A stretch of 63,694 bases of DNA from an uncultured Gammaproteobacteria bacterium (lineage in GTDB: Bacteria; Patescibacteriota; Microgenomatia; UBA12405): positions 1-63,694 of the forward strand of contig CAZICU010000002.1 in NCBI GenBank assembly GCA_964537905.1, written 5' to 3'. Under the pieces are notes generated by a model. It did no database searches and was not told the origin of the DNA. It was given only the letters and a program-made list of their open reading frames with translations. The position numbers and the translations under genes are program-made. Positions 1 to 20,642 of the stretch are shown one piece after another. Positions within the stretch are counted from its first letter, which is position 1. Each line of letters opens with the position of its first letter.

Positions 1-105
1 CGACGTAGCCTTGCGAAGGCGGGCCATTAGACTTTTTGTTAAGTATCTTTTGTTGACCGTCTGGGACAACGTTGGAACTTTCTTAAAAAAATAACAAAAT
101 ATAAA

Positions 106-672
106 TTACTTTGTTTTAAAGGCGTAAGGTATCCCTCCGTTATCAAATACACTTCCTCCTACTCTCACTCGATAATAATAAGTCGTCTTCGGTCTCAACG
201 AAGTCAATGTTAATCGATGATTAGTTGTTATTGAACCAGACTCTACTGCCATTAAGACCATACTAGCCGCAGTAGTACCATATTCAATTTTTCCTATTGA
301 TGGAGATTCAGAAATCCAGGTTATTGTTACAGATTTACCATCATCAGTAGGCATTGCGGTAATATTTATTGGCTCGACAGAATAGTAAGTATTTTTAGTA
401 TTAACATTAGCAGTTACACCTATACTAGTTACCCCAACACTATTAGTTGTTGGTAAAGTTGATGACATAATAACACTCCCATTGCAGTATTTAACTGCCA
501 AAGAATTAATAAATTTACATAAAGTTATACTTTCAGTACTTACTCCCAAAACATTTTTTTTCGAGGCACTTTCACTAATCTTTCTGTTTATTTGTAAAGT
601 TAACAACAAGAACGAAGAAAAAATAAAAGAGGAAACTAAGGAGATAGTTATTGTTTTCTTAATATAATTCAT
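106..672 (-). CDS. Secreted/membrane-anchored protein with a fibronectin-III-like (purple-acid-phosphatase N-terminal-like) domain
   Basis: 188-aa ORF. The N-terminus has a hydrophobic anchor (ISLVSSFIFSSFLLLTL). The C-terminal pattern VTITW..IEYG..HRLTLTSLRPKTTYYYRV is typical of FN3/PAP-N beta-sandwich domains. Confidence 0.5.
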   Translation of the reverse strand: MNYIKKTITISLVSSFIFSSFLLLTLQINRKISESASKKNVLGVSTESITLCKFINSLAVKYCNGSVIMSSTLPTTNSVGVTSIGVTANVNTKNTYYSVEPINITAMPTDDGKSVTITWISESPSIGKIEYGTTAASMVLMAVESGSITTNHRLTLTSLRPKTTYYYRVRVGGSVFDNGGIPYAFKTK

Positions 673-758
673 AATAAATGATGCAATAAAACCTTAAGTA
701 AGTCAAGTTCAATAAAAACCTTTTATCGAACCCTAAGGTATAAAGACATTTTTCATTT

Positions 759-902
759 CAACCAACTTTTCATTCATCCCAACCTTAAAAGTCGTACTCA
801 CGGACAGCAAAGCTGGACGTGAGATAATACGACTTTGGGTTGGGGTGAAATAAGACAGTCACAGGAATCTGCTCCCTGTTTATGGAGTCTATGGGTTGGT
901 TG
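759..902 (+). other. Highly structured non-coding region upstream of rep (candidate replication origin, att-proximal structure or ncRNA)
   Basis: An 8-bp closing stem pairs caaccaac (759-766) with gttggttg (895-902). It encloses a rod-like hairpin at 774-848 with 11+6+6 bp: tcatcccaacc/ggttggggtga, gtcgta/tacgac and ctcacg/cgtgag. A second imperfect hairpin lies at about 852-888. Confidence 0.35.
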
Positions 903-1047
903 GTATCACATTTTTATTTTTTTAATATGCTATTATGTATTTAAAGCAGTAGTGAATACGGTGTCATCCAAAAAAATATAAAATAAATCTAATTTCAAAG
1001 AAATTTTGCCAGATTTTTTTGTATTTTCATTCCTCCAAACATGAGAA

Positions 1048-1224
1048 ATGTATTCACCGTTAACTGTTAACAATCAAGAGAAAATAATTCGTGAGTTTTT
1101 CAAGCGTAAATATAACCTCAAATTAACTGATGAAGATTATTTAGAAATTTCCCAATCGCTTCACTTTTTAGGTAGAGCAATCTATAGATCTTTGCGATTC
1201 CAAAAAAAAGGAGGTGCAAAGTGA
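1048..1224 (+). CDS. Small hypothetical protein (58 aa) translationally coupled to rep; possible DNA-binding or accessory factor
   Basis: The ORF reads ATG..TGA and is below the 60-aa track cutoff: MYSPLTVNNQEKIIREFFKRKYNLKLTDEDYLEISQSLHFLGRAIYRSLRFQKKGGAK. Its TGA stop (1222-1224) overlaps the GTG start of rep (1221). Confidence 0.4.
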   Translation: MYSPLTVNNQEKIIREFFKRKYNLKLTDEDYLEISQSLHFLGRAIYRSLRFQKKGGAK

Positions 1225-2306
1225 AACAAAGTAACTTTTTCCCAGCCAAAAAGATAATAGAACCTAAAGAAATAAATAGGAAAGAAATTTTAGAAAAAGT
1301 TAATCAATACCTTGAAGCTTTCCGAACTGATGATAGCATCGCGCATCAGGAGGAAAGTAATATCATAGATTGTTCAGATAAAAATATCTTTCTACCTTAT
1401 CCACCTAACTCCTTATTATCCTTGACTCTTAATAGATCATCTCAACAGACCACTAATCAATATGACACTACCCTAAGTGAATATATTAAAACCATTAAAC
1501 AACAAATGAGAGATGAATTCTTTAGAATGTCTCCATATCCTTGTAATATCAGCAACAACAAAAAGTTTCTACTACGAATAGGGGAGAATGGTAAGTTAGA
1601 AGCAATTAAAGAAACTTTTGTTAAATGTAATTCTTGGACTTGTCCTCGTTGTGCTCCCATAAAAGCCAGAGCCATTAGTTATCAAATTAAAGATGTAGTC
1701 TTACTTAATAATCTTAATTGTTACCTAACTCTTACTCTCGATCCTAGTAAATTAAGTCCAGAAAACATCTTAGAATCTCGTACTCATAATATTATTACTA
1801 GTTACTTTAATCGCCTAATCACCACTATCAAAAGAAAGAAGTTTAATTATTTCAATGTTAAAAAGAATCAGCATTATCAATTTAATCTCAAAAATAGTGG
1901 TGAAAAACTTAAGTATATCTGGGTAATAGAATTTCAAAAAAATGGACTGGCGCATATGCATGTTTTATTAAATCAATTCTTACCTATAGAAGTCATCAGA
2001 GAAGCTTGGGTTCATATTGGTGGTGGACATATTATGTATATCGATAAAGTCGAGAACCTTAATGCAGTTTCTAACTATATAACCAAATATTTTTGTAAAG
2101 AATTTAATCCCAAAAATGAACAAAGATTAACCTTTAGATTTTTTGAAAAGAGATACTCTATCAGTCAATCATGCCAAAGATCACCTAAAATAACGCAAAA
2201 AATGTTCGACAAAGATACCGACAATTCAGAAATATTTGTTAAATTAAAGGAGATGGGATTATCTTTTCTTCGTGATAAACTTGATTATCCCCCTCAAAAC
2301 CTATGA
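1221..2306 (+). CDS. rep: Rolling-circle replication initiator (HUH endonuclease superfamily Rep)
   Basis: The motifs occur in canonical order. A Cys cluster CNSWTCPRC lies at residues 136-144. Motif I is YLTLTLD (168-174). The HUH motif is HMHVLL (245-250). The Tyr motif is YITKY (286-290). An AGGAGG Shine-Dalgarno site lies 6 nt upstream of the GTG start. Confidence 0.75.
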   Translation: MKQSNFFPAKKIIEPKEINRKEILEKVNQYLEAFRTDDSIAHQEESNIIDCSDKNIFLPYPPNSLLSLTLNRSSQQTTNQYDTTLSEYIKTIKQQMRDEFFRMSPYPCNISNNKKFLLRIGENGKLEAIKETFVKCNSWTCPRCAPIKARAISYQIKDVVLLNNLNCYLTLTLDPSKLSPENILESRTHNIITSYFNRLITTIKRKKFNYFNVKKNQHYQFNLKNSGEKLKYIWVIEFQKNGLAHMHVLLNQFLPIEVIREAWVHIGGGHIMYIDKVENLNAVSNYITKYFCKEFNPKNEQRLTFRFFEKRYSISQSCQRSPKITQKMFDKDTDNSEIFVKLKEMGLSFLRDKLDYPPQNL

Positions 2307-3781
2307 AGTATCTTGTATATCTAAGAAAATCAACAGAAGACACTAGTCATCAAGTTCAGTCTTTAGACACTCAAAAAAGAATTCTTTTAGAATTCGCTTC
2401 AAAAAATCCAGATATTGAAATAGTCGACATTATTACAGAAAGTCGTAGTGCTAAAGATGACGGTAATAGACCAAAATTTGATGATATGCTCAAACGATTT
2501 AAAAAAGGAGAAGCGGAAGGTCTTCTTGTCGCCCATATTGATCGTATTTCTAGAAATCTTATAGAATCAGGACTTATTCAAAAACTAAATGACCAAGGCA
2601 TTATAAAACAGATTCGTACTCCAGAAAGAATCTATTCTAACTACAATGATTTTTTTCTTTTAACTATAGAATTAGCCACTGCTACCCTTTATCCTCGTAA
2701 TCTTTCAAAAAGAGTTAAAGAAGGTATGATTTCCAAGGCTCAAAAAGGAGAGTATGTTTGTGGAGTTGGACCAATAGGGTATATCAATAATCACGGTACA
2801 CTCATTCAAGACTTATCCAGAGCCAAATATATTAAAGAAATTTTTAAAATGTATTCATCTGGTAAATACTCTTTAAAACAAATCAGTAATATTCTATATA
2901 CCAACGGTTTCAGAACTAGAGCTAATAAAAAAGTGTGTAAATCCAAAATTCATCAAATACTTAAAAATCCTATTTATTATGGTGTAACTACTTTTGACGG
3001 TATTCAATATAAAGGAAATTTTAAACCTATCATTAGTAAAAGTGTTTTTGATCTAGCTCAAGAAGTTCTAACAGGTAAAAACAGAGCTAAAAAATATCAC
3101 CATGAGTTTAGGTATAGAGAATTTCTTTTTTGTGATAAATGTGGTTGCAAAATAACTGCCACTATTAAAAAAGGTAAATTCAAATACTACTATTGCACCA
3201 ACGGTAAAGGAATTTGTGAAGAACATAAAAAATACCTTAATGAAAAAACAATTGAAAAAATTTTTCAAGAATTTTTTAGAAAATTTCAAATAGACCCTGA
3301 ATTAGCCACTATTTCTCTCAATAAATATATTGCTGATAAACAAGCTTCTAAAACAGACAAGAAATTTTATGAAGAAACTCTAAAAAAAGATTTAATTAAA
3401 AACGAAAAGAAGTTAGATAGATTAGAAGAACTTTATATGGAAAACCTTATTGAAAAAGATAGATACATAAAGAACAGAAATAAATTATTAAATGAAAATA
3501 TTTTAATAAAAGAAAATCTAAAAACTATAAATAACCATTCAAGCACTTTGGAACCGATAATAAAATTAAAAAATGAGCTAATTACCCTAGAAAATACATT
3601 TGTAAAAAATGATGATATTGGAAAATCTAATTTAATTAGATCAGTACTTTGGAACTGTACTATTTTTAAAGATAATATTCAAAAAATAAACCTAAAAAAA
3701 CCCTATTCATTATTTAATGGGATGCAAAAATGTCACGATTTAACAACTTGGTTGCTCCGTATGGATTCGAACCACAATTAG
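2303..3781 (+). CDS. Large serine recombinase (integrase)
   Basis: The N-terminal resolvase-type catalytic region is VYLRKSTEDTSHQVQSLDTQ. A recombinase domain follows (SLKQISNILYTNGFRTR..ILKNPIYYG). A zinc ribbon reads CDKCGC..YYCTNGKGIC, and a long coiled coil follows. The start overlaps the rep stop (ATGA). The last 33 nt lie inside tRNA-Gln. Confidence 0.9.
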   Translation: MKYLVYLRKSTEDTSHQVQSLDTQKRILLEFASKNPDIEIVDIITESRSAKDDGNRPKFDDMLKRFKKGEAEGLLVAHIDRISRNLIESGLIQKLNDQGIIKQIRTPERIYSNYNDFFLLTIELATATLYPRNLSKRVKEGMISKAQKGEYVCGVGPIGYINNHGTLIQDLSRAKYIKEIFKMYSSGKYSLKQISNILYTNGFRTRANKKVCKSKIHQILKNPIYYGVTTFDGIQYKGNFKPIISKSVFDLAQEVLTGKNRAKKYHHEFRYREFLFCDKCGCKITATIKKGKFKYYYCTNGKGICEEHKKYLNEKTIEKIFQEFFRKFQIDPELATISLNKYIADKQASKTDKKFYEETLKKDLIKNEKKLDRLEELYMENLIEKDRYIKNRNKLLNENILIKENLKTINNHSSTLEPIIKLKNELITLENTFVKNDDIGKSNLIRSVLWNCTIFKDNIQKINLKKPYSLFNGMQKCHDLTTWLLRMDSNHN

Positions 3782-3822
3782 TCGGTTCAGAGCCGACTGT
3801 CCTACCATTAGACGACAGAGCA
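3749..3822 (-). tRNA. tRNA-Gln (anticodon CUG)
   Basis: The reverse complement folds as a cloverleaf. The acceptor stem is TGCTCTG/CGGAGCA with a U1-A72 pair. The D arm is GTCT/GGAC. The anticodon stem is GTCGG/CCGAC with loop CTCTGAA. The T arm is TGTGG-TTCGAAT-CCATA. A CCA end is encoded. Confidence 0.9.
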
Positions 3823-3835
3823 GTAGAATTTCACA

Positions 3836-3865
3836 ATTATACTTCAGATGTTATAATTTAACCAA
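3836..3865 (-). promoter_or_regulatory. Candidate sigma70-type promoter for tRNA-Gln
   Basis: On the minus strand a TTGGTT -35 box (3860-3865) is followed by an 18-nt spacer and a TATAAT -10 box (3836-3841). The -10 box lies 13 nt upstream of the tRNA 5' end. Confidence 0.4.
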
Positions 3866-4032: not shown

Positions 4033-4683
4033 TTAAAAAACATATCTTTCTTTTTCTCGTCCAATAGCTGTTGCTTCACCATGTCCCGAAAAAACATCTG
4101 TTTCTTCAGGTAATTTCATTAATTTTCTTAAACTTTCAAAAATTTTTTTTGTTGATCCATATTTAAAATCAGTTCTGCCTCTCAAATCTTTAAACAATGT
4201 ATCTCCAGAAAATAACAACCCTCCTTTTTCAATGGATGGCAGAGTTGATTTATAGTAAAGACATACCGATCCTGGTGTATGCCCCGGAGTTTTTATGACT
4301 TCTAATTTACTTTCTCCCAAAATAATTTCTTTAATTTTATCCAAATCTTTATCAATTTTTATTAAATTTGGAATTTGCTTTTCTAATTTTAAAAAATGTT
4401 TTGCCGTCTCATCTTGTCTGTCCAATATAAATTTATCTTTTGAACTAACATAAATTGGCACTTTATACATCAATTTTAAATCCAAAGCCGCCAAGGAATG
4501 ATCAAAATGTCCATGAGTCATAATCACTCCTATTAATTTAATTTTCTTACTTTCAATTTCTTCTGAAATTGCTATTCCATCATCAGCCGGATCAATTACC
4601 AATCCTTCTTTTGTCTTTTCATCCCAAACAATATAACAATTTGTCTCTAGTTGGCCTAAAACCAGTACTTCAAATTTAATCAT
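4033..4683 (-). CDS. MBL-fold metallo-hydrolase (glyoxalase II-like)
   Basis: Carries the THGHFDH metal-binding signature and a downstream GHTPGS motif. The 216-aa size is typical of the family. Confidence 0.85.
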   Translation of the reverse strand: MIKFEVLVLGQLETNCYIVWDEKTKEGLVIDPADDGIAISEEIESKKIKLIGVIMTHGHFDHSLAALDLKLMYKVPIYVSSKDKFILDRQDETAKHFLKLEKQIPNLIKIDKDLDKIKEIILGESKLEVIKTPGHTPGSVCLYYKSTLPSIEKGGLLFSGDTLFKDLRGRTDFKYGSTKKIFESLRKLMKLPEETDVFSGHGEATAIGREKERYVF

Positions 4684-5445: not shown

Positions 5446-6567
5446 ATGTCATTAAATAGCAAAATAAAAGTTTCCCTTTTTAAGGGAAAAACCGGTTTAT
5501 CCGAAAAGGGTTTAGACATTCCAATCATCGCTCTCTCTCCTATGGATGGCATTACTGACGAAGCTTTTCGTTTGGTTCAGACCAAAATTGCTAAACCCGA
5601 TTTAATTTTTACTGAATTTGTTAGCGCTGAAGGTATTTCTCGCGGCGGCATCAAACTATACGATACTCTTTTATTTTCTTCCGAAGAACGTCCTATTATT
5701 GGTCAATTATTTGGTAAAGATCCTAACAGTTTTTACAAATCAGCCATTATCTTATCTGAACTTGGTTTTGATGGTATTGATATTAATATGGGTTGTCCCG
5801 CCAAAACCGTCACTCAACACGGCAGCGGTGCTGCTCTAATTAGTAAATCTGAATTGGCCGTTCAAATTATTCAATCTGCTAAGCAGGGGATTGATGATTG
5901 GTTTTCGGGTAAAGTCACAATTACTAACCTTGGTCTTAATCAAAAAACTTTAGATGTTATTAAACATAATCAAAATTATTCAAAGTTAAATTTTCCCTTT
6001 TTAAGGGAAAAACCTGAGCGAAGCGAAGGAAAGGGTTTAAAACCAACTCTCTCCGTCAAAACTCGTCTCGGTACCTCCGAACCAATTATTGAAACCTGGA
6101 TTCCAATTTTGTTAGCCCAACCAATTGATTTTTTAACTATTCATGGTCGAACTCTCAAACAAGCCTACGCTGGTCAAGCTGATTGGAGTGAAATTCAAAA
6201 AGTTGTTAATTTAGCCAAAGGTACGGGTATAAAAATATTTGGCAATGGTGATATTCAAAATCGTCAGCAAGGAATTGAATACTGTCAAAAGTATGGGGTT
6301 GATGGGGTACTAATCGGTCGTGCCGCTGGTGGTAATCCTTGGGTCTTTAATGATCATGTTGCCACACCACAAGAAAAATTTTCGGCTATGTTACTTCACG
6401 CTCAAATCTTTCAAGAAGTTTTTTGCAACCGCTGTTTTGATAGTCTTCGCAAACATTTTTTGCTTTATACTTCTGATTTTCCTAATGCAAAGTCACTCAG
6501 AATGAAACTTGTTAGATTAAACTCAGTCAAAGAACTTTTGTCCCTTGAAGATCAATTTCAAGATTGA
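5446..6567 (+). CDS. dus: tRNA-dihydrouridine synthase
   Basis: Carries the Dus family motifs PMDGITDEAFR, DINMGCPA, SVKTRLG and IHGRT. It contains two in-frame copies of a hairpin repeat (see the repeat features at 5471 and 5991). Confidence 0.85.
   Translation: MSLNSKIKVSLFKGKTGLSEKGLDIPIIALSPMDGITDEAFRLVQTKIAKPDLIFTEFVSAEGISRGGIKLYDTLLFSSEERPIIGQLFGKDPNSFYKSAIILSELGFDGIDINMGCPAKTVTQHGSGAALISKSELAVQIIQSAKQGIDDWFSGKVTITNLGLNQKTLDVIKHNQNYSKLNFPFLREKPERSEGKGLKPTLSVKTRLGTSEPIIETWIPILLAQPIDFLTIHGRTLKQAYAGQADWSEIQKVVNLAKGTGIKIFGNGDIQNRQQGIEYCQKYGVDGVLIGRAAGGNPWVFNDHVATPQEKFSAMLLHAQIFQEVFCNRCFDSLRKHFLLYTSDFPNAKSLRMKLVRLNSVKELLSLEDQFQD
5471..5513 (+). repeat. G/C-rich hairpin repeat, copy inside the dus 5' end (in frame)
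   Basis: The hairpin TTTCCC-TTTTTAA-GGGAAA carries the tail aaccggtttatccgaaaagggttt. The 23-mer tttccctttttaagggaaaaacc is identical to that of the copy at 5992. Confidence 0.7.
5991..6038 (+). repeat. G/C-rich hairpin repeat, copy inside mid-dus (in frame)
   Basis: The sequence is ttttccctttttaagggaaaaacctgagcgaagcgaaggaaagggttt. It translates as FPFLREKPERSEGKGL within a long insertion that precedes the conserved SVKTRLG strand. Confidence 0.7.
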
Positions 6568-6580
6568 TAAAGTTAAAGAT

Positions 6581-6979
6581 ATGCCAGACGAAAATCAAGT
6601 TCAAAATTTACTCAATATTGAATCACTTATAAATACCGCTACTGTTCGACTCGATGAAATTAGTCGTCAACTACATGAGCAAAAAAGTATGATTGATGCT
6701 CTTTTAGAAAATAATGCCGAATATCAAGAGATCGAAAAAGAATCCAAAAAACAAGCCAAGTTAAAAACTTCTGCTAAACAAAATGTTCTTAGTGCTCCCG
6801 AAGCCAAATCGACTCTCGACAAACTTAAAGAAAATCAAATTCAAGCCAAAGAATTAAAAATTGCTTTATCAGATTATTTAGCCCAATATGTGGCTCTTTC
6901 TGGTACCAATCAAATTGAAGGTCCAGACGGTGTAGTTCGTCAAATAATTTATACTGCCAAATTAGTAAAAACCAAATAA
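6581..6979 (+). CDS. Hypothetical coiled-coil protein
   Basis: The ORF has predicted helical, charged sequence. The ATG at 6581 is preferred over the TTG at 6545, which overlaps dus. Confidence 0.45.
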   Translation: MPDENQVQNLLNIESLINTATVRLDEISRQLHEQKSMIDALLENNAEYQEIEKESKKQAKLKTSAKQNVLSAPEAKSTLDKLKENQIQAKELKIALSDYLAQYVALSGTNQIEGPDGVVRQIIYTAKLVKTK

Positions 6980-6996
6980 TAGTTTATAATCCATCT

Positions 6997-7308
6997 ATGG
7001 CACAAAATATTTCTCAAAATGATTTCCAAAAAGAAGTTCTTGAATTCAAAGGTAAAGTTTTAGTCGATTTTTGGGCTCCTTGGTGTGGTCCTTGCCAAAT
7101 GCTTGGCCCAATTATTGAAGAACTTAGTCATGAGTTAACTGATGTCAAAGTTGTCAAAGTTGATGTTGATCAAGCCCAAGAACTTTCTGGTAAATATGGT
7201 GTTTCCGGCATTCCTACTGTTATGATCTTCAAAGATGGTCAACCAGTCGAAACTATTGTCGGTTTTCGTCAAAAACAGGATTACATTAATGCCATCGACA
7301 AGGCATAA
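6997..7308 (+). CDS. trxA: Thioredoxin
   Basis: The WCGPC active site is present, and the 103-aa size is typical. Confidence 0.9.
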   Translation: MAQNISQNDFQKEVLEFKGKVLVDFWAPWCGPCQMLGPIIEELSHELTDVKVVKVDVDQAQELSGKYGVSGIPTVMIFKDGQPVETIVGFRQKQDYINAIDKA

Positions 7309-7312
7309 TTAA

Positions 7313-8386
7313 ATGGATTTAAATCAACTCAAAACTTTTTTAGATTCTCAAAATCTTCCGCCGTTTCGTTTCCGCCAAATTGTTAAGAATTATTTTTCTG
7401 GTCGTTACTCTAATTTTGATCAGATGACTGATTTGTCCAAGGATTTACGTGCCAAACTTTCCCAAAAATTTTTTCTCTTGTCTGTTTCCGAAACAAAAAC
7501 TATCGGTGATAATTCAGTTCAAAAAACTCTCCTAAAATTATCTGATGGTCAATCAATTGAAACTGTTCTTATGGATTATGAAGATTGGATCACTGCTTGT
7601 GTCTCTTCCCAAGTTGGTTGTGCTCTTAATTGTCAATTTTGTGCCACTGGCAAAATGGGTTTCCAACGCAATTTAACTACTGACGAAATTATTGACCAGA
7701 TTTTATTTTGGAAAAATCATTTAAATTATAAAAATAATTCTCCCCGTCCTGTTAAGGGAGATGGAGGGTGTAGTTCCTCCCCTTGTCAAAGGGGAATGAG
7801 GGGATTTTTGGGAGGGTTTAGAGTCGTTTTCATGGGTATGGGTGAACCATTTTTAAATTGGGATAACTTGCTGGCCGCTCTTGAAATTATTAATTCACCT
7901 AGTGGTCTTAATATTGGTGCTCGCAAAATTAGTATTTCTACTGCTGGCATTGCTGATAAAATTATTGAATTTACTAATTTAGACACTCAAATTAATCTCG
8001 CTGTTTCTCTTCATTCTGCCAATCAAAAATATCGTGAGTCAATTATGCCTATTGCTCGGCAATATAATCTCGACGAACTCAAAAAATCTTGTTTGTATTA
8101 TGTCAATCACACCAACCGTCAATTATTTTTTGAATATGCTTTAACTAACCAAAATACTTCTCCAACGGACGCCAAATTATTAGCTGATTTTCTTCATTCT
8201 CATCGTTTATTTTTTCTTAATCTTATTCCTCTCAATCCGGTTGATGACGGTCTTATTCCCGCTACCAAAGATCAACAAAAACTTTTTATGAATTATCTCA
8301 ATCAATACAGAGTTGAATATTCTCTCCGAAAATCTTTTGGTCAATCTTATTCCGCTGCCTGTGGCCAACTCGTTACTAACAAATAA
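7313..8386 (+). CDS. rlmN: 23S rRNA/tRNA (adenine-C2)-methyltransferase RlmN (radical SAM)
   Basis: Carries the CALNCQFCATG radical-SAM cluster, the MGMGEPF motif and a C-terminal SAACGQL. An in-frame repeat-derived insertion lies at residues ~143-169. Confidence 0.9.
   Translation: MDLNQLKTFLDSQNLPPFRFRQIVKNYFSGRYSNFDQMTDLSKDLRAKLSQKFFLLSVSETKTIGDNSVQKTLLKLSDGQSIETVLMDYEDWITACVSSQVGCALNCQFCATGKMGFQRNLTTDEIIDQILFWKNHLNYKNNSPRPVKGDGGCSSSPCQRGMRGFLGGFRVVFMGMGEPFLNWDNLLAALEIINSPSGLNIGARKISISTAGIADKIIEFTNLDTQINLAVSLHSANQKYRESIMPIARQYNLDELKKSCLYYVNHTNRQLFFEYALTNQNTSPTDAKLLADFLHSHRLFFLNLIPLNPVDDGLIPATKDQQKLFMNYLNQYRVEYSLRKSFGQSYSAACGQLVTNK
7739..7820 (+). repeat. Two tandem G/C-rich hairpin repeat modules inserted in frame in rlmN
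   Basis: The first module is tctccccgtcctgttaagggagatggagggtg (CTCCC/GGGAG hairpin). The second is cctccccttgtcaaaggggaatgaggggatttttgggagggttt (CCCCTTGTCAAAGGGG hairpin). The same motifs occur at 17776, 20604 and 28100. Confidence 0.7.
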
Positions 8387-8469
8387 TTTTAAATTTTAAA
8401 ATTGATTAAAAATTAAAATTATAAATTAAAAATTAGATTATTACTCAATAAATAGGATATAATACCCTC

Positions 8470-9420
8470 ATGCTTATCGACGAAGTCAATATTACTATTA
8501 AAGGTGGTGACGGTGGAAATGGTATTGTCCATTTTTATAACGATGCTTTCCGCCCCAAAGGTGGCCCAGATGGGGGAAATGGTGGCGATGGTGGTTCTGT
8601 CTTTTTCGAAGGTGTTTCAGATATTTCCAAATTAAATCAATTTCGTCATGCCAAAGTTTATGCCGCTCAACCTGGTCAACCAGGAGATCGCAACAATCGT
8701 ACCGGCAAAGGTGGTGACGATTTAATTATCCAAGTCCCTGTTGGTACTGTGGCCATGTATGACAACGGTACTTCTATCGAAGTTACTCAAGTCGGCCAAA
8801 AAGTTCTCATGGCTCGTGGTGGTAGCGGTGGTAAGGGTAATTACATGTTCCGTTCATCTACTAATCAAACACCTCAAGAACGAGAATTAGGTTACAAATG
8901 TACTCCTAAAAAACTTTTCTTACAACTCAAACTTATTGCTCAAATTGGTTTAATTGGATTACCCAATGCTGGTAAAACCAGTTTATTAAATGAACTTACT
9001 TCGGCTAATGCCAAAGTAGCTAATTATGCTTTTACTACCCTTGAACCAAATTTAGGAGTTACCAAAAGCGGTCTAATTATTGCCGATATTCCTGGTCTTA
9101 TCGAAGGTGCTGCTGACGGCCGTGGATTAGGCGTTAAGTTTCTCAAACATATTGAAAGGACTAGTTTATTAATTCATTGTGTTTCGGCCGAATCACTTGA
9201 TCCCCTAAAAGATTATCAAACAATTCGTCAAGAACTTAGTAATTACAGTTCTGTTTTATCTCAAAAACCAGAAATCATTGTTCTTACTAAATCAGATATT
9301 TTAAACGATAAAGAAATTAAATCAATTCAAAAGAAAATCGGCGCTAAAATAATTACCTCTATCATCGATACTGATAGTATCAAAAAACTTAGTGACTTAA
9401 TTTCTCAAAAATTAAGCTAA
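8470..9420 (+). CDS. obg: GTPase Obg
   Basis: The Gly-rich Obg fold reads GGDGGNG..GGPDGGNGGDGG. The G1 motif is GLPNAGKTS and the G3 motif is DIPG. Confidence 0.9.
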   Translation: MLIDEVNITIKGGDGGNGIVHFYNDAFRPKGGPDGGNGGDGGSVFFEGVSDISKLNQFRHAKVYAAQPGQPGDRNNRTGKGGDDLIIQVPVGTVAMYDNGTSIEVTQVGQKVLMARGGSGGKGNYMFRSSTNQTPQERELGYKCTPKKLFLQLKLIAQIGLIGLPNAGKTSLLNELTSANAKVANYAFTTLEPNLGVTKSGLIIADIPGLIEGAADGRGLGVKFLKHIERTSLLIHCVSAESLDPLKDYQTIRQELSNYSSVLSQKPEIIVLTKSDILNDKEIKSIQKKIGAKIITSIIDTDSIKKLSDLISQKLS

Positions 9421-9837
9421 AACTCTTTTTACTTTATTCCAATTTCTTTTAAGTTGATTTAATAGTTTTACTGCTCCATCTTTGGTTGTTTTAAAATCAC
9501 TTTTATATTCTTCTATAACATCTCCAATAATCATGGCGTACTTTTCTTTATCAATATCTTTACCGGCTGTTTTTACCTCAGCTACTTTACTCATTACTGC
9601 CGTTTTAATTTTTTTGTATTTATTTACTGCTTCTTCAGTTGCTTCTCCAAAAACTTCTTCTACTTTTGCTTTTGTGTCTTTTGCTCCAGTTTGAACTTCT
9701 TTACTTAGTTTAGCCAACATTTTAACTATATCCTCTCTAGTTTTTTTACCTGATTGTGGGGCTAAAAGCAATCCTCCTACAGCACCAACCGTCGCCGCTA
9801 ATAACCCCGTTAAAAAAAATTTTCCTGTTTTTGACAT
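9412..9837 (-). CDS. YtxH domain-containing protein
   Basis: The N-terminal segment FLTGLLAATVGAVGGLLLAPQSGKKTREDI is typical of YtxH. The rest is Lys/Glu-rich and helical. Confidence 0.7.
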   Translation of the reverse strand: MSKTGKFFLTGLLAATVGAVGGLLLAPQSGKKTREDIVKMLAKLSKEVQTGAKDTKAKVEEVFGEATEEAVNKYKKIKTAVMSKVAEVKTAGKDIDKEKYAMIIGDVIEEYKSDFKTTKDGAVKLLNQLKRNWNKVKRVLA

Positions 9838-9875
9838 TTTTATTTTAATTAAATAACACTTTAAGTCTAAAGGAA

Positions 9876-11696
9876 TTAAAAACTTCTGTCAATTAAATAT
9901 GTCCCATTTTGGGATTCTCTCAAATCAAATCCAAAAGCTCGACGGCTAACCGCTATTATTGGTGGTGCTTGAATTCTTTTAAAATAACTTAATTTAAATA
10001 GTTTCCATTTTTCTTCTAAATCATTTTTAAATTCCAATCTGTTTAAAAAATATTTTTTAATTAACCCCTCTTCTAATTTCATTTCTTTTTCAATTAATCC
10101 TTTATCGTACCATTCTAAAATTTCTTTTGGATCTTTTCTAAATTCTACCCAGGCTCTTACTAATTTATCGTGATAAGGATAAAGGATTGGATCGCCTTTA
10201 CCTTTGGTTACATCTTGTTTATCACTTAATTCTGCTGATGGTACTACTTCAAAAATTTCTTTTGGAATCAATTCTCTATTGTTAATTTTATTTATATATT
10301 TCGCCAGTTGATAAACTTCCCATTTATACAAATCAGCCAATGGGCAAATTGCCCCATTCATATCACCATAAAGGGTAGTGTAACCCAAAGCCATTTCTGT
10401 CTTATTACTATTATTAATTATTACCCCTTCAACTGCGGCTGCTACCCCTGCCAATATTCGGCTTCCTCTATCTCGTGCTTGAATGTTCTCAATTAAGAAA
10501 TCAGTTACATTTAAGCTATTTTCTTGTAATTCTTTGACTGTCAAATCAACTCCATTTTGAATCGAGATTATTTTATATTCAATTTCTAAATTATCAGCTA
10601 ATTTTTTTGCCGCATTTTTAGTTAAATCAGAATTAAATTTTGATGGCATATTCACTCCTAAAATTTTTTCTTTACCCAAAGCATTTACCAACAAACTTGC
10701 CGATACAGCTGAATCAATTCCACCACTGATTCCGATTACTGCTTTTTTAATTCCAGTTTGTTCAAAAAATTTTTTCAATCCATAAATCAATCCATCATAT
10801 AATTCTTCTGTATCTTTATAGCCTTCCGAAGCTTTGGCGAAGGAGACCTTTGTCTCGCCCAATTTTATTTCTAAAATATTTTCTTCATAAGGTCTTGCCG
10901 TTTTAATTATTTCTCCATCACGACTATAAATAGTCGAACTACCATCAAATAAAAAAATGTTTTTGCCATTATTTTGAATTCCCACATTGTTACAATAAAC
11001 AAAATTTATTGGATTTTTAGATAATAAATTTTTTATAATTTTATGTCTTTTATTATTTTTTTGCCATGTCCATGGTGAAGCTGAAATATTGATTATAATT
11101 TCCGACCTATTATCAGCCAAAATTTTTATTGGGTTAACAGTATAATTTTCAACCCACATATCTTCACACAAAGTTAACCCAATTTTAATTTCTTTTTTTC
11201 TTATTTTTAAATTAAATGGTTTTAATAATTTATTAATTTTTACTTCTTTTTCATTTGCTAATTTTTGCATTGAATAAAAATGTCTTTCATCATCAAATTC
11301 TCTATATTTAGGCATTAATGTTTTAAAAGTATATCCTCTAAAAACTCCGTTGCTTACCCATTTTTTATTTTGAGCTATAAATGCCGCATTATATTTTCTG
11401 ACTCTACCATCTTCGTCTACTTTTTCAAAATCAGCCAATACACTTCCCCAAATTACCGTTATTTTTTCACTTTCTTCTCTAATTTTTTCATTAATTTTCA
11501 CTAAACTTTTTATCAAACTTTCATTTTCCCATTCATCACCAAGTAAATATCCGCTAACCACCATTTCTGGAAATATCACCACATCATTTTTATTTTCCCT
11601 CGCTTCTTTAATTTTACGAATAATTTTTGCAAAGTTAATATCCGGTCTCCCCGCCACCACTTCCATCTGTACCACCGCAATTTTTATATCCTTCAT
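9876..11696 (-). CDS. nadE: Glutamine-dependent NAD+ synthetase
   Basis: The N-terminal CN-hydrolase domain carries FPEMVVSGY and LCEDMW. The C-terminal PP-loop is GISGGIDSAV. The start at ATG 11696 (MKDIKIAVVQ) is preferred because TATAAT (11704-11709, minus strand) lies 7 nt upstream. The ORF track begins at TTG 11717. Confidence 0.85.
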   Translation of the reverse strand: MKDIKIAVVQMEVVAGRPDINFAKIIRKIKEARENKNDVVIFPEMVVSGYLLGDEWENESLIKSLVKINEKIREESEKITVIWGSVLADFEKVDEDGRVRKYNAAFIAQNKKWVSNGVFRGYTFKTLMPKYREFDDERHFYSMQKLANEKEVKINKLLKPFNLKIRKKEIKIGLTLCEDMWVENYTVNPIKILADNRSEIIINISASPWTWQKNNKRHKIIKNLLSKNPINFVYCNNVGIQNNGKNIFLFDGSSTIYSRDGEIIKTARPYEENILEIKLGETKVSFAKASEGYKDTEELYDGLIYGLKKFFEQTGIKKAVIGISGGIDSAVSASLLVNALGKEKILGVNMPSKFNSDLTKNAAKKLADNLEIEYKIISIQNGVDLTVKELQENSLNVTDFLIENIQARDRGSRILAGVAAAVEGVIINNSNKTEMALGYTTLYGDMNGAICPLADLYKWEVYQLAKYINKINNRELIPKEIFEVVPSAELSDKQDVTKGKGDPILYPYHDKLVRAWVEFRKDPKEILEWYDKGLIEKEMKLEEGLIKKYFLNRLEFKNDLEEKWKLFKLSYFKRIQAPPIIAVSRRAFGFDLRESQNGTYLIDRSF

Positions 11697-11738
11697 TACC
11701 ATAATTATATCTGACAATCTGAATAGCTGATAGGCTGA

Positions 11739-12653
11739 CTAGCTTTCAATTTCTCTTTCTGGCCAATGTTTATCAATTTCTACTATCAATTCCAAAAAAA
11801 TTTTTCGTTCGGTCATTAGTTCTAATTCTTTGCGAGCATTATAGCCAATTTCTTTAATTTTTTTACCCCCTCGGCCAATAATCATTTTTTTATATCTTTC
11901 AGCTGTAGTTAAAATTACTGCCCTAATTACCAACATTTTTCTTTTGTCAGTAATTGAATCGACTCGGACATCTACCGAATAAGGAACTTCTTCTCTCAAA
12001 AACAAATAAGCTTTTTCTCGAATAATTTCTTGGACATAATCTTTTGAATTCATTCCCATCTTTGGCTTATTCCCGTTATCCATAATTTTTATATTATATT
12101 CAGTTTCTTTATTGATTTTTGCTGGTAATAATTCAAAAATCAAATTAATTAATCCTTTAATATTTTTATCTTTAATCGCACTTACACTGATTACCTTATC
12201 AAATTCATCTTCCAAATAGTTATATTCTGGTAAATGATCTTTTGAACCAGTAGCAATATCTATTTTGTTATAAACCAAAATTTTTTTTGCTTTTACTTTT
12301 CTCACCAAACCAATCACTTTATTTTCTTCTTCATTTTTAGGTCGAGAAATATCTACCAAGCATAAAATTACATCTGCCTGATTTAATTCTTTTGGTGCTT
12401 CCTGATTAATTCTTTTTCCCATTAAATCATCCACTTTGGCAATAATCCCTGGTGTATCACTAAATATAATTTGACCTCTATCGTCACTATAAACCACCCG
12501 ACTATTTTTTCGGGTTGTTTGGGGAAGGGGTGAAGTAATGGCTACTTTTTGCGACATGATCGCATTCAGTAGGCTCGATTTGCCAGTATTTGGCCGACCC
12601 ACCAATACTACCCTTCCAATTTTTGGTTTAATTACTTCAATTATTTTTTGCAT
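11739..12653 (-). CDS. era: GTPase Era
   Basis: The G1 motif is GRPNTGKSS and the G3 motif is DTPG. The C-terminal KH domain reads IGRGGKKIKEIG. Confidence 0.9.
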   Translation of the reverse strand: MQKIIEVIKPKIGRVVLVGRPNTGKSSLLNAIMSQKVAITSPLPQTTRKNSRVVYSDDRGQIIFSDTPGIIAKVDDLMGKRINQEAPKELNQADVILCLVDISRPKNEEENKVIGLVRKVKAKKILVYNKIDIATGSKDHLPEYNYLEDEFDKVISVSAIKDKNIKGLINLIFELLPAKINKETEYNIKIMDNGNKPKMGMNSKDYVQEIIREKAYLFLREEVPYSVDVRVDSITDKRKMLVIRAVILTTAERYKKMIIGRGGKKIKEIGYNARKELELMTERKIFLELIVEIDKHWPEREIES

Positions 12654-12684
12654 TCAGCATATTTTACCAAATTTTGCCATAAAA

Positions 12685-12712
12685 TTGACTTTTTAATAAA
12701 AAATATTACAAT
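12685..12712 (+). promoter_or_regulatory. Candidate promoter of the small ORF unit
   Basis: A TTGACT box (12685-12690) is followed by a 16-nt spacer and a TACAAT box (12707-12712). Confidence 0.4.
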
Positions 12713-12760
12713 ACAAAATGTTTTATAAATCAAAGCGATTTATTTTAAAGCAGAACCTTA

Positions 12761-12775
12761 AAATCATAAACTTAA
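12761..12775. repeat. Left arm of a perfect 15-bp inverted repeat flanking the small ORF
   Basis: aaatcataaacttaa is the exact reverse complement of 13102-13116. Confidence 0.85.
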
Positions 12776-12832
12776 AATTCAGTTCATTAGAACTTTTATA
12801 TAAAACATAATTTAAAAAAAGGAGTGATCATT

Positions 12833-13105
12833 TTGGAACAATCACCGTTATGTCTGTCACCTTTATTATTTATGTCAAAAGAGAAATTAGAAAGTTTTTT
12901 TAAAAAGGCATTTCCCGGTTTAGAAAAATACAAGGTAAACTACAAACAAGTCCAAAATATTCTGCGTATAACCTTTCTTTGGAAAAAGAAAAAAATAAAA
13001 ATCGATTTAGGAAAAGGAGGAGTTAATATTTTTAATAAAAATATAAGTAATTTTATTAAATTACGAATACAGAGACAATTACTTTTAGATATAAAATTCC
13101 ATTAA
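12833..13105 (+). CDS. Small Lys-rich hypothetical protein
   Basis: The ORF has an AAGGAG Shine-Dalgarno site at 12819-12824. The TTG at 12833 has 8-nt spacing from it. The track start GTG 12824 overlaps the Shine-Dalgarno site, and ATG 12872 is also possible. An intrinsic terminator follows. No domain was recognised. Confidence 0.3.
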   Translation: MEQSPLCLSPLLFMSKEKLESFFKKAFPGLEKYKVNYKQVQNILRITFLWKKKKIKIDLGKGGVNIFNKNISNFIKLRIQRQLLLDIKFH

Positions 13106-13116
13106 GTTTATGATTT
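13102..13116. repeat. Right arm of a perfect 15-bp inverted repeat flanking the small ORF
   Basis: ttaagtttatgattt overlaps the ORF stop codon (13103-13105). Confidence 0.85.
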
Positions 13117-13162
13117 AAAAAGAGATATGGTTTAAAACCATTTATTCCATATCTCTTTTTTT
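13117..13162 (+). terminator. Rho-independent terminator
   Basis: A 10-bp stem pairs agagatatgg (13121-13130) with ccatatctct (13147-13156). A run of seven T follows. Confidence 0.75.
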
Positions 13163-13241
13163 ACCTATATAAAATTTTTTTTGACAGTTGTAAACCATTT
13201 TTTTACAGGTAAAATAAAAAGACTATAAAAACATTTGACAC

Positions 13242-13268
13242 TTAGCAATGTCAATGATAGACTGCTAA
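13242..13268. promoter_or_regulatory. CIRCE-like inverted repeat overlapping the putative lon promoter
   Basis: TTAGCAATG-N9-GACTGCTAA compares with the CIRCE consensus TTAGCACTC-N9-GAGTGCTAA at 15 of 18 arm positions. It lies between TTGACA (13235-13240) and the lon ATG, and it overlaps a TAGACT -10 candidate (13258-13263). Confidence 0.4.
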
Positions 13269-13272
13269 ATAT

Positions 13273-15651
13273 ATGGAACAAAATCCACTAGAAACTACCA
13301 CCTTACAACCTGTTCGTAAAGTTCTTCCTTTGATTCCTTTACGTAATATTATTCTTTTTCCTTCAGTTGAGACTTCACTTTTTTTTGGTCGTAAAGAATC
13401 CATGAATTCACTTCTTCATTCTTATGATAATACTAACAAATTAGTCATTATTACCACTCAAAAAGATTCTCGAATCGATAATCCCAACTTAAATGATCTT
13501 TATAACGTTGGAGTTTTAGCCAAAATCGAACATGTTCTTCAAACTGATGGTAATCTTCATGCTATTGTCAAAGGTATTTCTCGAGTTAATATTGTCAATC
13601 TTCTTAAAACTGATCCCTTTTTTTTAGCCGAATATGTTGATTTACCGATTATTCCAGAATCTCTAACTGAAGTTCAACAATCCTCAGAAACTCTTTTAAG
13701 TCAACTTAAAAAAGCTTTTTCTTTAGGTCGTCAACTTGATTTACCGGCTATGATGCAACTTAGTAATGGTGTTTCTAGTAGTGATTTAGCTGATCAAGTT
13801 GCTTTTTCTCTTGATGCTAAAATGTCCGAAAAACAGGGATTACTCGAAACATTATTAGTTAGTCAACGTCTCAAAGCTGTCACTGAATTTTTAATTCAAG
13901 AAATGAAAATTGCCGAACTGGAACGTTCAATTGAAGAAAAAACTCAAGAAAAATTCAACACTGGTATTAAACGTAATGTTTTAGAAGAAAGAAAACGTCA
14001 AATTGAAAAAGAATTAAAACGTCTCGGTCAAAGTACCGGTGGTGAATTTGATGATTTAGAAAAACAAATAAAAAATCTTAATGTTTCCAAAGATATTCGT
14101 AAAAAACTTAAAAAAGAACTTGATCGACTTATGGAAATGGGATCAATGGCTCCCGAAGCTAGTTATATTAAAACTTATCTTGAAACCATAGTTGAGTTAC
14201 CTTTTAATAAATATTCCAAATCTGATGTTAAATTACCCAAAGCCACCAAAATTCTTGACGAAGATCATTATGGCATCAAAGATGTTAAGGAAAGAATTCT
14301 TGAATATTTAGCAGTTATTCAATTAAAAAATAAACTAAAAACCAAAAAAAATGAAGATGTTTCTGGTACTGCCAACATTCTTTGTTTTATTGGTCCTCCG
14401 GGTGTTGGTAAAACTTCATTAGGTAAATCCATTGCTAAAGCTCTTGGTCGTGAATTTGTTCGTGCTTCTCTTGGTGGTATTCGTGATGAGGCTGAAATTC
14501 GGGGTCATCGTCGAACTTATGTTGGCGCTATGCCTGGTCGAATTATTAAAGGTCTAAAAGAAGCTAAATCAATGAATCCTGTTTTTATGCTCGACGAAGT
14601 TGATAAAATTGGTTCTGATTATCGAGGTGATCCTTCATCTGCTTTACTTGAAACTCTTGATCCAGAACAAAACAGAGAATTCACCGATCATTACGTTGAT
14701 TTCCCGGTTGATCTTTCTAAAGTATTTTTTATCTTAACCGGCAACGATATTTCTACTATTCCTGGTCCTCTTCGTGATCGTTTGGAAATTATCAATTTTT
14801 CTGGCTACACTCTTGATGAAAAATTTAATATTGCCAAAAAATATTTAGTTAAAAAAGAGTTAAAAGCTAATGGTTTACAGTCAAAAGACATTGTCTCTAT
14901 CAAAGATGAAACTTTAAAATATGTTATTGAAAAATACACTCGTGAAGCTGGAGTTCGTAGTCTTGATCGAACTATTTCTTCACTTTTCCGCAAAGCCGCC
15001 AAAAAAATTGTTACTGATAAAAAAACTCCAATTGATTTAAACAATTCCCTTCTTCTTAAAAAATTCTTAGGTCCAGAAAAATTTTCTGCTACTCTTAAAG
15101 GTAAAAAAGACGAAGTTGGTGTTTCTACTGGTTTAGCTTGGACTTCTGTTGGTGGTGATATTTTGTTTATTGAAGTTAATATTATGCCGGGCCGTGGCCA
15201 ACTTATTTTAACTGGAAAATTAGGCTCTGTTATGAAAGAATCTTGTCAAGCCGCTTTATCTTTTGTTCGCTCTCAATCAAAAGAATTTGGAATTAAACAA
15301 GATTTTCATAAAATTGATATTCATATCCATGTTCCCGAAGGTGCCACTCCCAAAGATGGTCCCAGTGCTGGCGGTGCTATTACTACTGCTTTAGTTTCTG
15401 CTCTCAAAGGTGTATCTATTTCCAAAGAAGTCGGGATGACTGGTGAAATTACTCTTCGGGGAAACATTTTAGAGATTGGTGGTCTTAAGGAAAAATCCAT
15501 CGCTGCTCATCGAGCCGGACTCAAAACTATTTTTATTCCCCAAGATAATGCCAAATCTTTAGTTGAAATCCCCAAAGAAGTCAAAAAAGACATCAAATTC
15601 ATCCCTGTATCTCACTATTCCGAAATTTACAAAAAAATTTTTATTAAATAG
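13273..15651 (+). CDS. lon: ATP-dependent Lon protease
   Basis: Has an N-terminal LON domain, the Walker A motif GPPGVGKTS and the catalytic Ser motif PKDGPSAG. Confidence 0.95.
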   Translation: MEQNPLETTTLQPVRKVLPLIPLRNIILFPSVETSLFFGRKESMNSLLHSYDNTNKLVIITTQKDSRIDNPNLNDLYNVGVLAKIEHVLQTDGNLHAIVKGISRVNIVNLLKTDPFFLAEYVDLPIIPESLTEVQQSSETLLSQLKKAFSLGRQLDLPAMMQLSNGVSSSDLADQVAFSLDAKMSEKQGLLETLLVSQRLKAVTEFLIQEMKIAELERSIEEKTQEKFNTGIKRNVLEERKRQIEKELKRLGQSTGGEFDDLEKQIKNLNVSKDIRKKLKKELDRLMEMGSMAPEASYIKTYLETIVELPFNKYSKSDVKLPKATKILDEDHYGIKDVKERILEYLAVIQLKNKLKTKKNEDVSGTANILCFIGPPGVGKTSLGKSIAKALGREFVRASLGGIRDEAEIRGHRRTYVGAMPGRIIKGLKEAKSMNPVFMLDEVDKIGSDYRGDPSSALLETLDPEQNREFTDHYVDFPVDLSKVFFILTGNDISTIPGPLRDRLEIINFSGYTLDEKFNIAKKYLVKKELKANGLQSKDIVSIKDETLKYVIEKYTREAGVRSLDRTISSLFRKAAKKIVTDKKTPIDLNNSLLLKKFLGPEKFSATLKGKKDEVGVSTGLAWTSVGGDILFIEVNIMPGRGQLILTGKLGSVMKESCQAALSFVRSQSKEFGIKQDFHKIDIHIHVPEGATPKDGPSAGGAITTALVSALKGVSISKEVGMTGEITLRGNILEIGGLKEKSIAAHRAGLKTIFIPQDNAKSLVEIPKEVKKDIKFIPVSHYSEIYKKIFIK

Positions 15652-15653
15652 TC

Positions 15654-17423: not shown

Positions 17424-17775
17424 CTGGTAAATCTTGATCTGGAATCAATAAACTCACTATTTCGGTAAGCACCCCTTGGCCATCCGTAGCTTCAGCGGAG
17501 GAGGCAAAAATCATTGCTTCTGATAATTCACCCATAATTTTTCTCGGAATTATATTGGTAACAAATACAGTTTTTTTACCAATCAAATCAGTAGGGGAAT
17601 ACCACTTTTTTATTCCTGAAAATACTGTTCTCAAATTTTCTTCACCAAAATCCACTTGCAGTCTCAGTAATTTTTCCGACCCTTCAACTTCTATGGCTTC
17701 TTTTATCTCACCAATCAAAAATTCTACTTTGGCAAAATCATCATATTTAATTTGATCCATAGCCAATTTTATCAT
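17404..17775 (-). CDS. tRNA-binding domain protein (CsaA/EMAP/MetG C-terminal type)
   Basis: The OB-fold signature reads KLLRLQVDFGEENLRTVFSGIKKWY..LIGKKTVFVTNI. The ATG at 17775 is preferred. The track start TTG 17790 lies inside a repeat element. Confidence 0.7.
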   Translation of the reverse strand: MIKLAMDQIKYDDFAKVEFLIGEIKEAIEVEGSEKLLRLQVDFGEENLRTVFSGIKKWYSPTDLIGKKTVFVTNIIPRKIMGELSEAMIFASSAEATDGQGVLTEIVSLLIPDQDLPVGSKVF

Positions 17776-17814
17776 CCCCCTCCTTGTCAAGGGAGGGGTC
17801 AGGGGTGGGTTTTT
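17776..17814 (-). repeat. G/C-rich hairpin repeat immediately upstream of the tRNA-binding protein gene
   Basis: The plus strand reads ccccctccttgtcaagggaggggtcaggggtgggttttt. On the gene strand this reads ..CCCCTCCCTTGACAAGGAGGGGG-ATG. It is the same family as 28100, 20604 and 7775. Confidence 0.7.
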
Positions 17815-17875
17815 GTGTTATTATTAGCTTACCCAGCCTATTATTAATTATTAATTTTTAATTCTTAATTAAATT

Positions 17876-19237: not shown

Positions 19238-19276
19238 ATATTGGAAATTAGATATTGGAAATTAGGAATTTAATTT

Positions 19277-20476: not shown

Positions 20477-20486
20477 ATATAAAAAG

Positions 20487-20633: not shown

Positions 20634-20642
20634 TATCTTAAC

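Follow-up and report, generated by a model that had tools for sequence, protein, structure and literature searches.

Actinomycete integrative and conjugative elements (AICEs) such as pSAM2 integrate at the 3′ ends of tRNA genes, excise as a circle that a rolling-circle initiator copies, and have clustered genes for the integrase (Int) and the replication protein (Rep). They span 9–24 kb and carry an FtsK-like Tra protein, Xis and spread genes, and most of them rely on a tyrosine integrase and an initiator of the RepSA family. The ssrA-specific genomic islands of Dehalococcoides are said to contain a site-specific integration module, driven by a serine recombinase, that targets the 3′ end of the gene for tmRNA, a small stable RNA. 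The Ralstonia inoviruses phiRSM1 and phiRSM3 possess a serine recombinase and an attP that matches the tRNA-Ser gene at its 3′ end, the core being 13 bp long (PMC4471427). Integrative mobilizable elements (IMEs) of streptococci and other Firmicutes pair a serine or tyrosine integrase with rolling-circle-type initiators or relaxases and carry variable passenger genes, including restriction-modification and toxin-antitoxin systems; their serine integrases are reported to insert inside protein-coding genes, tRNA 3′ ends being used by the tyrosine integrases (PMC5704250). The clusters for type IV secretion systems (T4SS) found in Patescibacteria mostly come without a relaxase (PMC12102498). Here we describe a locus at positions 56–3754 of the 63,694-nt stretch of contig CAZICU010000002.1 (the whole stretch is hereafter called the window), where an HUH-type Rep and a large serine integrase are encoded next to a tRNA-Gln gene. 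We consider it probable that this 3.7-kb segment integrates site-specifically and belongs to a family of such elements that is distributed across the Candidate Phyla Radiation (CPR), or Patescibacteria.

The boundaries of the element were established by comparison with an unoccupied site and involve the following features, in window coordinates.

52–3754, no strand: whole integrated element, both copies of the GTTG core included, from comparison of its flanks with contig L053.
52–55, no strand: attL core GTTG, with the host flank to its left and element DNA from 56, from a three-way comparison of attB (L053), attL and attR.
3751–3754, no strand: attR core GTTG, equal to C71-A72-A73-C74 of tRNA-Gln, from the attB/attL/attR comparison.
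3749–3822, minus strand: tRNA-Gln(CUG), the integration target (ARAGORN; Rfam, 59.9 bits; attB comparison).
55–79, plus strand: candidate integrase-binding attP arm (P′ arm), GACCGTCTGGGACAACGTTGGAACT, a motif conserved in the related element L060.

The empty-site contig L053, a Logan assembly from another sample, was found through the identically encoded host metallo-beta-lactamase (MBL)-fold protein located to the right of the tRNA (4033–4683). In this contig the window segment 56–3750 is absent and tRNA-Gln is joined straight to the left flank; the identity to the right flank, through the entire tRNA, is 99.9%, and that to the DNA left of the window, for which contig L001 adds 1,940 nt leftward, is 99.85%. 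Because L053 lacks this segment, the element measures 3,699 bp with one core copy (56–3754). The insertion is precise, lies at the 3′ end of tRNA-Gln and is polymorphic among near-identical strains. With a slash marking the junction, attB reads ...GTATCTTTTGTTG/CTCCGTATGG..., attL reads ...GTATCTTTTGTTG/ACCGTCTGGGACAACGTTGGAAC... and attR reads ...TTAACAACTTGGTTG/CTCCGTATGG.... In the three-way comparison GTTG is the sole sequence shared by attL and attR, their flanking bases being different, and the base that precedes the core in the element differs from that in the host; the crossover lies within GTTG. A short core at tRNA positions 71–74 is as expected for a serine integrase. No long direct repeats of the tRNA were found at the left end within the window, and their lack is explained by the 4-nt core, which is all that a serine recombinase needs. 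The preliminary description of this locus had set the left end at 759, which the empty-site comparison replaces with junctions at 52–55 and 3751–3754. Its tRNA-Gln is real and intact, also after insertion, the element contributing no more than what follows C74 on the 3′ side (CAA → CCA). The proposal that the block ends inside the tRNA needs correction: the crossover is at tRNA positions 71–74 and not in the tRNA body, and it is the integrase reading frame alone that continues for 27 nt into host tRNA DNA.

At the left end, the element shares the motif GACC-N3-TGGGACAA-NN-TTGGAACT with the corresponding end of L060 (Rep 55% identical), and the segment 55–79 is a candidate P′ arm that the integrase may bind. 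The P arm is conserved in L065, where the integrase is 77% identical.

A fragment resembling the 5′ half of tRNA-Gln occupies window positions 1–32 and 26 nt further left (L001, 1914–1972). It covers the part between D-arm and anticodon loop (one mismatch in 20 nt, plus CCATTAGAC), is split by a 29-nt hairpin-forming insert and is called by neither ARAGORN nor Rfam. Its place in the empty allele is about 20 nt beyond the 3′ end of the real tRNA. The fragment was considered as an attL and rejected; since it occurs in both the occupied and the empty allele, it is a host feature, and may be a decayed duplicate or the scar of an older event. The 43-aa open reading frame (ORF) at 3730–3861 on the plus strand is the antisense of tRNA-Gln and almost certainly no gene.

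Integration and mobility of the element are well supported by further contigs. In a third sample set, 776 nt of the left end of the element are present with 100% identity on contig L058, where the junction is the same but the neighbour is a NUDIX gene that is only 74% identical to the NUDIX gene following tRNA-Gln in the nearest relatives. An identical left end is thus joined to a different flank, which places the same element in a second host background, and the identity of the copies in the two hosts shows that the element has moved horizontally in recent times. Syntenic regions with tRNA-Gln(CUG) and neither Rep nor Int were found in L123–L125 (RlmN 85% identical), L126 (84%) and L128 (78%), the last on a 906-kb scaffold. 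Contig L002 covers window positions 26–3780 exactly, and L001 stops at 3780. With an empty allele alongside in the same samples, the 31-mers specific for the occupied allele would begin with 26–56 and end with 3750–3780; a k of 31 is the value used for Logan assemblies. The contig ends match these 31-mers to the base and fit a mixed population of occupied and empty sites, which is suggestive but not proof. All named RlmN matches are from Candidatus Shapirobacteria, and the host is, judging from these matches, a Shapirobacteria-like CPR bacterium. The earlier suggestion of a mobile element integrated at tRNA-Gln in a CPR-like host is thereby borne out, and the comparison of relatives that it called for reveals empty tRNA-Gln variants and no conserved synteny of the three genes.

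The two enzymes of the element are encoded on the same strand.

1221–2306, plus strand: Rep, an endonuclease of the HUH type with a catalytic tyrosine pair (YxxxY) and a Cys cluster near its N terminus (PF23343, phrog_3419, motif alignment).
2303–3781, plus strand: large serine integrase of 492 aa (Pfam and PHROG matches, conserved catalytic residues).

The integrase scores above the cut-off for PF00239 (Resolvase, 70.7 bits), PF07508 (Recombinase, 60.8 bits) and PF13408 (Zn_ribbon_recom, 26.5 bits against a cut-off of 25.3), in line with its first assignment as a large serine recombinase, and matches phrog_95 'integrase' (E 7e-79). Across 28 relatives, conservation extends to residues Y6, R8, S10, D80, R81 and R84 and to the zinc-ribbon cysteines 277, 280, 298 and 305. 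As its ORF continues past the crossover, the last nine codons of the integrase (3755–3781, 27 nt) are host DNA, antisense to the tRNA. The integrated form ends with ...TTWL/LRMDSNHN and the stop, the slash marking the crossover, and the predicted excised circle would encode ...TTWL/TVWDNVGTFLKK followed by the stop. In relatives the integrase stop is also found inside the tRNA.

Rep is a 361-aa protein with a GTG start, preceded by the AGGAGG sequence at 1209–1214 that had been pointed out earlier and is present. It matches the Pfam profile PF23343 (REP_ORF2-G2P) with 44 bits against a cut-off of 27.8 (E 2.9e-11) and phrog_3419 'rolling circle DNA replication initiation'; PF23343 is found in 63 of the 67 Rep homologs. 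The profile search proposed for this protein thus assigned it to PF23343 and phrog_3419, with the RepSA profile PF20199 far below its cut-off (15.8 bits against 34). Motif I, the HUH motif and the catalytic tyrosines are conserved in the expected order in an alignment of 30 sequences, where LTLTLDP and the Cys cluster CNSWTCPxC are near-invariant. The preliminary description had made its reading depend on conservation of the HUH and Tyr positions, and H245, H247, Y286 and Y290 are in fact invariant across these 30 homologs. The AlphaFold2 model of Rep has a predicted local distance difference test (pLDDT) score of 81. It gives no Foldseek match at E<0.01 and only weak ones (probability 0.6–0.77) to the Rep domains of Helitron, RepB, circovirus, geminivirus and SIRV; no PDB match was obtained by sequence. 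A weak similarity to the Helitron transposase is seen both in sequence (PF14214, E 1.4e-4) and in fold (7lcc, probability 0.72).

Among phages, Rep is most similar to proteins of RSM1 and RS603, two inoviruses of Ralstonia (28% identity at an E of about 1e-4). The catalytic core that contains the HUH and Tyr motifs is 31–45% identical over 64–160 residues to the Reps of small plasmids, namely Thermotoga pRQ7 (846 bp) and small Geobacillus and Halobacterium plasmids. Rep relatives at 23–27% identity were also seen on five small metagenome contigs that contain no integrase (L086, L097, L117, L084 and L087) and that either are 1.6–4.8 kb long with terminal overlaps or have two Rep copies in a concatemer-like arrangement; these are likely free rolling-circle plasmids or single-stranded-DNA viruses.

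The preliminary description had viewed the element as reduced to Rep and Int, which proved too narrow, as three further features lie within its boundaries.

1048–1224, plus strand: orf58, encoding a small basic protein that recurs in at least 15 loci and is predicted to form a helix-loop-helix (AlphaFold2).
773–849, plus strand: conserved imperfect hairpin of 77 nt upstream of the orf58-Rep operon (DNA fold, covariance model).
106–672, minus strand: cargo gene whose 188-aa product has a hydrophobic stretch at its N terminus and an FN3-like (Pur_ac_phosph_N) domain (PF16656, E 8e-10).

The three same-strand ORFs at 1048–1224, 1221–2306 and 2303–3781 overlap as first described, through GTGA at the orf58/rep and ATGA at the rep/int junction. 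The orf58 product follows the pattern ...KIRxxFKK...LSDxEIxEIxxSLxYLGRAIxR... with a basic tail in at least 15 loci, and its AlphaFold2 model has a pLDDT of 86.5. It has no match in Pfam, NCBIfam, PHROG or PADLOC and none in the PDB by sequence or fold, and the databases yielded a single homolog. It is translationally coupled to rep; orf58 is a candidate for a copy-control factor or, equally, a directionality factor. The coupling recalls small copy-control proteins such as CopG, encoded upstream of repB in pMV158.

The complete 375-nt intergenic region 673–1047 belongs to the element and includes the hairpin at 773–849, which has a DNA folding energy of −27.3 kcal/mol (z −7.8 relative to shuffled sequence). 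The hairpin is conserved at the DNA level in L059 and L003, the remainder of the spacer is not, and the DNA just 3′ of it (TTTATGGAGTYTWTGGG; 856–905 region) is conserved in the same two loci. Covariance-model matches were found upstream of orf58 or Rep in seven related loci, including L064, L063, L060, L018 and L010. Each homolog folds by itself into a long hairpin with differing stem sequences, and all share an A-rich bulge GA(T/A)AAAT on the 3′ side; in the close set, three pairs are changed on both sides in a compensatory manner. No Rfam family matches the hairpin. For the Rep origin it is the leading candidate.

The cargo gene lies inside the boundaries and travels with the element into the host context of L058; its product is predicted to be a secreted FN3-like protein. 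As had been stated earlier, no capsid, transfer or partition gene was detected in the element with Pfam and PHROG. A TTG-start ORF of 48 aa at 835–981 on the plus strand overlaps the 3′ arm of the hairpin and encodes a polar, then hydrophobic, then basic sequence. It was considered as a coat-like gene and rejected, since PHROG gave no match and the single relative found, in L003, is a weak one (E 3e-4).

Homologs of Rep come almost exclusively from the CPR, covering Shapiro-, Woese-, Gottesman-, Roizman-, Ames- and Levyibacteria, WWE3 and Paceibacterota. The order [orf58]-Rep-Int followed by a convergent tRNA recurs in more than 30 genome and metagenome loci, in which the integrase ORF ends on the tRNA 3′ end or a few bases away. 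The targeted tRNAs include Gln(CUG/UUG), several Ser isoacceptors, Asp, Glu, Gly and probably Arg. Integrase clades partly track tRNA identity, with one Gln clade and one Ser clade, and one WWE3 clade has near-identical integrases at Ser and at Asp tRNAs. Short direct repeats across the tRNA 3′ end suggest sizes of about 4.1–5.3 kb for L040, L007 and L018. The cargo differs between members. In L059 and L060, the closest relatives of the window element, defence-type genes occupy the same slot: in L059 (487–2052) an HTH protein and one of 521 aa that PADLOC assigns to its candidate system PDC-M36A, and a DNA methylase with a Bsp6I-type restriction enzyme in L060 (157–1664). L007 carries a HigB-like/HTH pair and L003 a methyltransferase. 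Many relatives have an accessory gene upstream of orf58 (C4, roughly 250 aa) that is absent from the window and has no Pfam, PHROG or PADLOC match. IMG/VR holds no family member and only Rep relatives at 24–30% identity. The family is widespread and, as no description of it was found in the literature searched (an incomplete library), apparently undescribed.

Some loci depart from this arrangement. In L018 (1424–6765) a 17-nt perfect direct repeat spans the tRNA-Ser 3′ end and would enclose the gene of a class II aminoacyl-tRNA synthetase (Asp/Lys/Asn type, 436 aa), which is either real cargo or reflects a chance repeat. The WWE3 metagenome contigs L073 and L074 (about 6300–20800), and also L023, contain tandem integrase and orf58-Rep-Int modules with no tRNA directly after the first integrase, which looks like serial insertion at one site. 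In L004, L016, L070 and L075 the integrase is complete and ARAGORN finds no tRNA at its end; these elements may target something else or a divergent tRNA. Loci from Acidobacteriota/Terriglobia genomes (L024–L031) encode more distant Rep relatives, at 29–36% identity, after which come a gene for a tyrosine integrase (PF00589) and, in convergent orientation, a tRNA (Val, Lys, Met, Ala or Asn); they have conserved small upstream genes of their own. They form a parallel Rep and tyrosine-integrase family, and because their Rep relatives precede a tyrosine integrase, the Rep module has been combined with both integrase types.

Taken as a site-specific integrative element, the locus would operate as follows. 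The large serine integrase would act on an attP that overlaps the end of the integrase gene itself and recombine it with the 3′-terminal bases of the tRNA gene, cutting at a central dinucleotide inside GTTG and leaving the tRNA intact, and excision would regenerate a 3.7-kb circle. On this circle the HUH Rep would nick an origin, possibly the hairpin at 773–849, and we infer that the circle is then copied by rolling-circle replication with the helicase and polymerase of the host. The orf58 product probably controls either the expression of rep or the direction of recombination. A variable slot to the left of the hairpin would hold the cargo, an FN3-like protein here and restriction-modification, toxin-antitoxin or defence-candidate genes in relatives. 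The replicon role is supported by the occurrence of Rep relatives on tiny rolling-circle plasmids, in inoviruses and on small circular or concatemeric contigs. In the earlier designation of the locus as an integrated replicon, the integration is confirmed; the replicon part continues to be deduced from these relatives, with neither a circular form nor a nick site found.

Several observations weigh against this interpretation. No circular contig (attP) was seen for any Rep+Int member, 0 of the 61 metagenome loci having terminal overlaps, and the empty-site contigs could stem from strains that never carried the element and not from excision. Compositional foreignness, suggested at first by a block visibly richer in AT than its flanks, had to be rejected: the GC content of the element (0.297) equals that of the host (0.313 ± 0.024 in windows of the same size), 31% of the windows being as low or lower. 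No Rep nick site was found in the element. The MAFFT alignment of eight divergent hairpins has an ambiguous register, leaving the covariation count not decisive, and since a promoter-like CGGACA-16-GATAAT lies inside the hairpin, the latter may just as well be a promoter or operator. A directionality factor for the recombination was not identified, and orf58 is without detectable homology. Lastly, the activity of Rep might be that of a relaxase, in place of replication initiation or in addition to it.

The last point leads to a serious alternative, which we nevertheless regard as unlikely, namely that the locus is an IME whose HUH protein is mainly a relaxase nicking an origin of transfer (oriT), perhaps the hairpin, with single-stranded DNA exported via a helper such as the relaxase-less MPF-FATA-type T4SS common in Patescibacteria. 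Replication would then be a by-product, with which this explanation is also compatible. The element does bring the integration and excision module of an IME, in the form of its integrase and att sites, and an identical copy in two host backgrounds requires some route of transfer. Many streptococcal IMEs use putative relaxases that resemble rolling-circle initiators, some without a coupling protein (PMC5704250), and the lack of relaxases in most Patescibacteria T4SS clusters (PMC12102498) would fit as well. However, Pfam and PHROG searches detected neither a coupling protein nor a T4SS gene in the element, and the nearest characterised relatives of Rep are replication initiators of phages and plasmids. 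A defective or satellite single-stranded-DNA phage, akin to the phiRSM-type inoviruses and with its coat and morphogenesis genes lost or borrowed from a helper, appears very unlikely. RSM1 and RS603 are the best phage matches of Rep, the phiRSM serine recombinase acts at a tRNA-Ser 3′ end (PMC4471427) and the 48-aa ORF at 835–981 has a coat-protein-like layout, but that ORF starts with TTG inside the hairpin and has one weak relative and no PHROG match, and no Zot/pI-type ATPase or coat gene was recognisable by Pfam or PHROG in the family loci examined. Members of the family are also absent from IMG/VR, and their cargo of restriction-modification, toxin-antitoxin and defence genes is typical of islands.

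The two catalytic tyrosines of Rep, its weak Pfam and fold similarity to Helitron and a junction of only 4 nt could alternatively be taken to mean that the HUH protein is a transposase acting in the manner of IS91, ISCR or Helitron and inserting beside GTTG, with the serine recombinase as a passenger or resolvase. This is highly improbable in view of the classic int-attP layout, with over 30 loci whose integrase ORF terminates exactly at the 3′ end of a tRNA, and of integrase clades that partly track the tRNA type. The insertion is precise, at one site and in one orientation, and the Acidobacterial relatives have swapped to a tyrosine integrase with the tRNA position kept. Whereas in IS91 and Helitron the two-tyrosine HUH protein is the only recombinase, here an integrase follows Rep. 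The chance that the locus is a fixed, domesticated remnant that no longer moves is negligible: the GC content equal to that of the host and the lack of a circular form among the Rep+Int loci would agree with it, but all ORFs are intact, presence or absence varies between strains with 99.9% identical flanks, an identical copy resides in another host background and the contig ends fit a mixed population.

To our knowledge, few mobile elements have been defined in the CPR/Patescibacteria, which represent a large share of bacterial diversity, and genetic tools for them are scarce. None was found described in the literature searched. The family has att sites resolved to the base and combines, in only 3.7–5 kb, a replication initiator with a large serine integrase at tRNA 3′ ends. 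Once their attP and attB are defined, large serine integrases can serve directly as genome-engineering tools, and one native to the CPR could open the genetics of these bacteria. The variable cargo slot, with its restriction-modification, toxin-antitoxin, defence-candidate and surface-protein genes, suggests miniature defence or adaptation islands. The family is moreover a testable candidate for the function of relaxase-less T4SS in Patescibacteria. A bolder proposal, quite doubtful at present, is that the Rep-Int elements are the natural plasmid-like, self-integrating DNA of the CPR and that their HUH protein is the 'missing' relaxase for these secretion systems. If the relaxase reading were true, it would explain the spread of restriction-modification, toxin-antitoxin and PDC-M36A genes among episymbionts, and the elements would offer a ready-made toolkit for CPR genetics, consisting of a replicon and a tRNA-targeting serine integrase. 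The target of the integrase is unusual, as the serine-integrase IMEs reviewed insert inside protein-coding genes (PMC5704250).

The preliminary description was not aware of a class that pairs an HUH Rep with a serine integrase at a tRNA, for which phiRSM and the streptococcal IMEs are in fact precedents. Among the more distant comparisons, the Dehalococcoides ssrA islands are large, lack Rep and belong to a different phylum, and small rolling-circle plasmids (pRQ7 and others) have a similar Rep catalytic core but are free, without an integrase or att site. The likeness to AICEs lies in the combination of tRNA integration with the logic of a rolling-circle Rep; no FtsK/TraB-like translocase domain is present in any ORF of the element, and the RepSA profile stays below its cut-off. 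The IMEs resemble the element in being small and in joining an integrase and a rolling-circle-type protein with variable cargo, while their initiators or relaxases belong to the Rep_trans, Rep_2 and PHA00330 families and not to PF23343, and conjugative helpers are known from their hosts. The viral phiRSM genome of 9 kb includes genes for coat and morphogenesis proteins, and phiRSM has a small recombinase of the resolvase/invertase type and a 13-bp core, in contrast to the 492-aa large serine integrase, the 4-nt core, the CPR host and the lack of detected virion genes here. With a distantly related Rep (28% identity), a serine recombinase and an attP at a tRNA 3′ end, phiRSM is the closest single precedent for the element.

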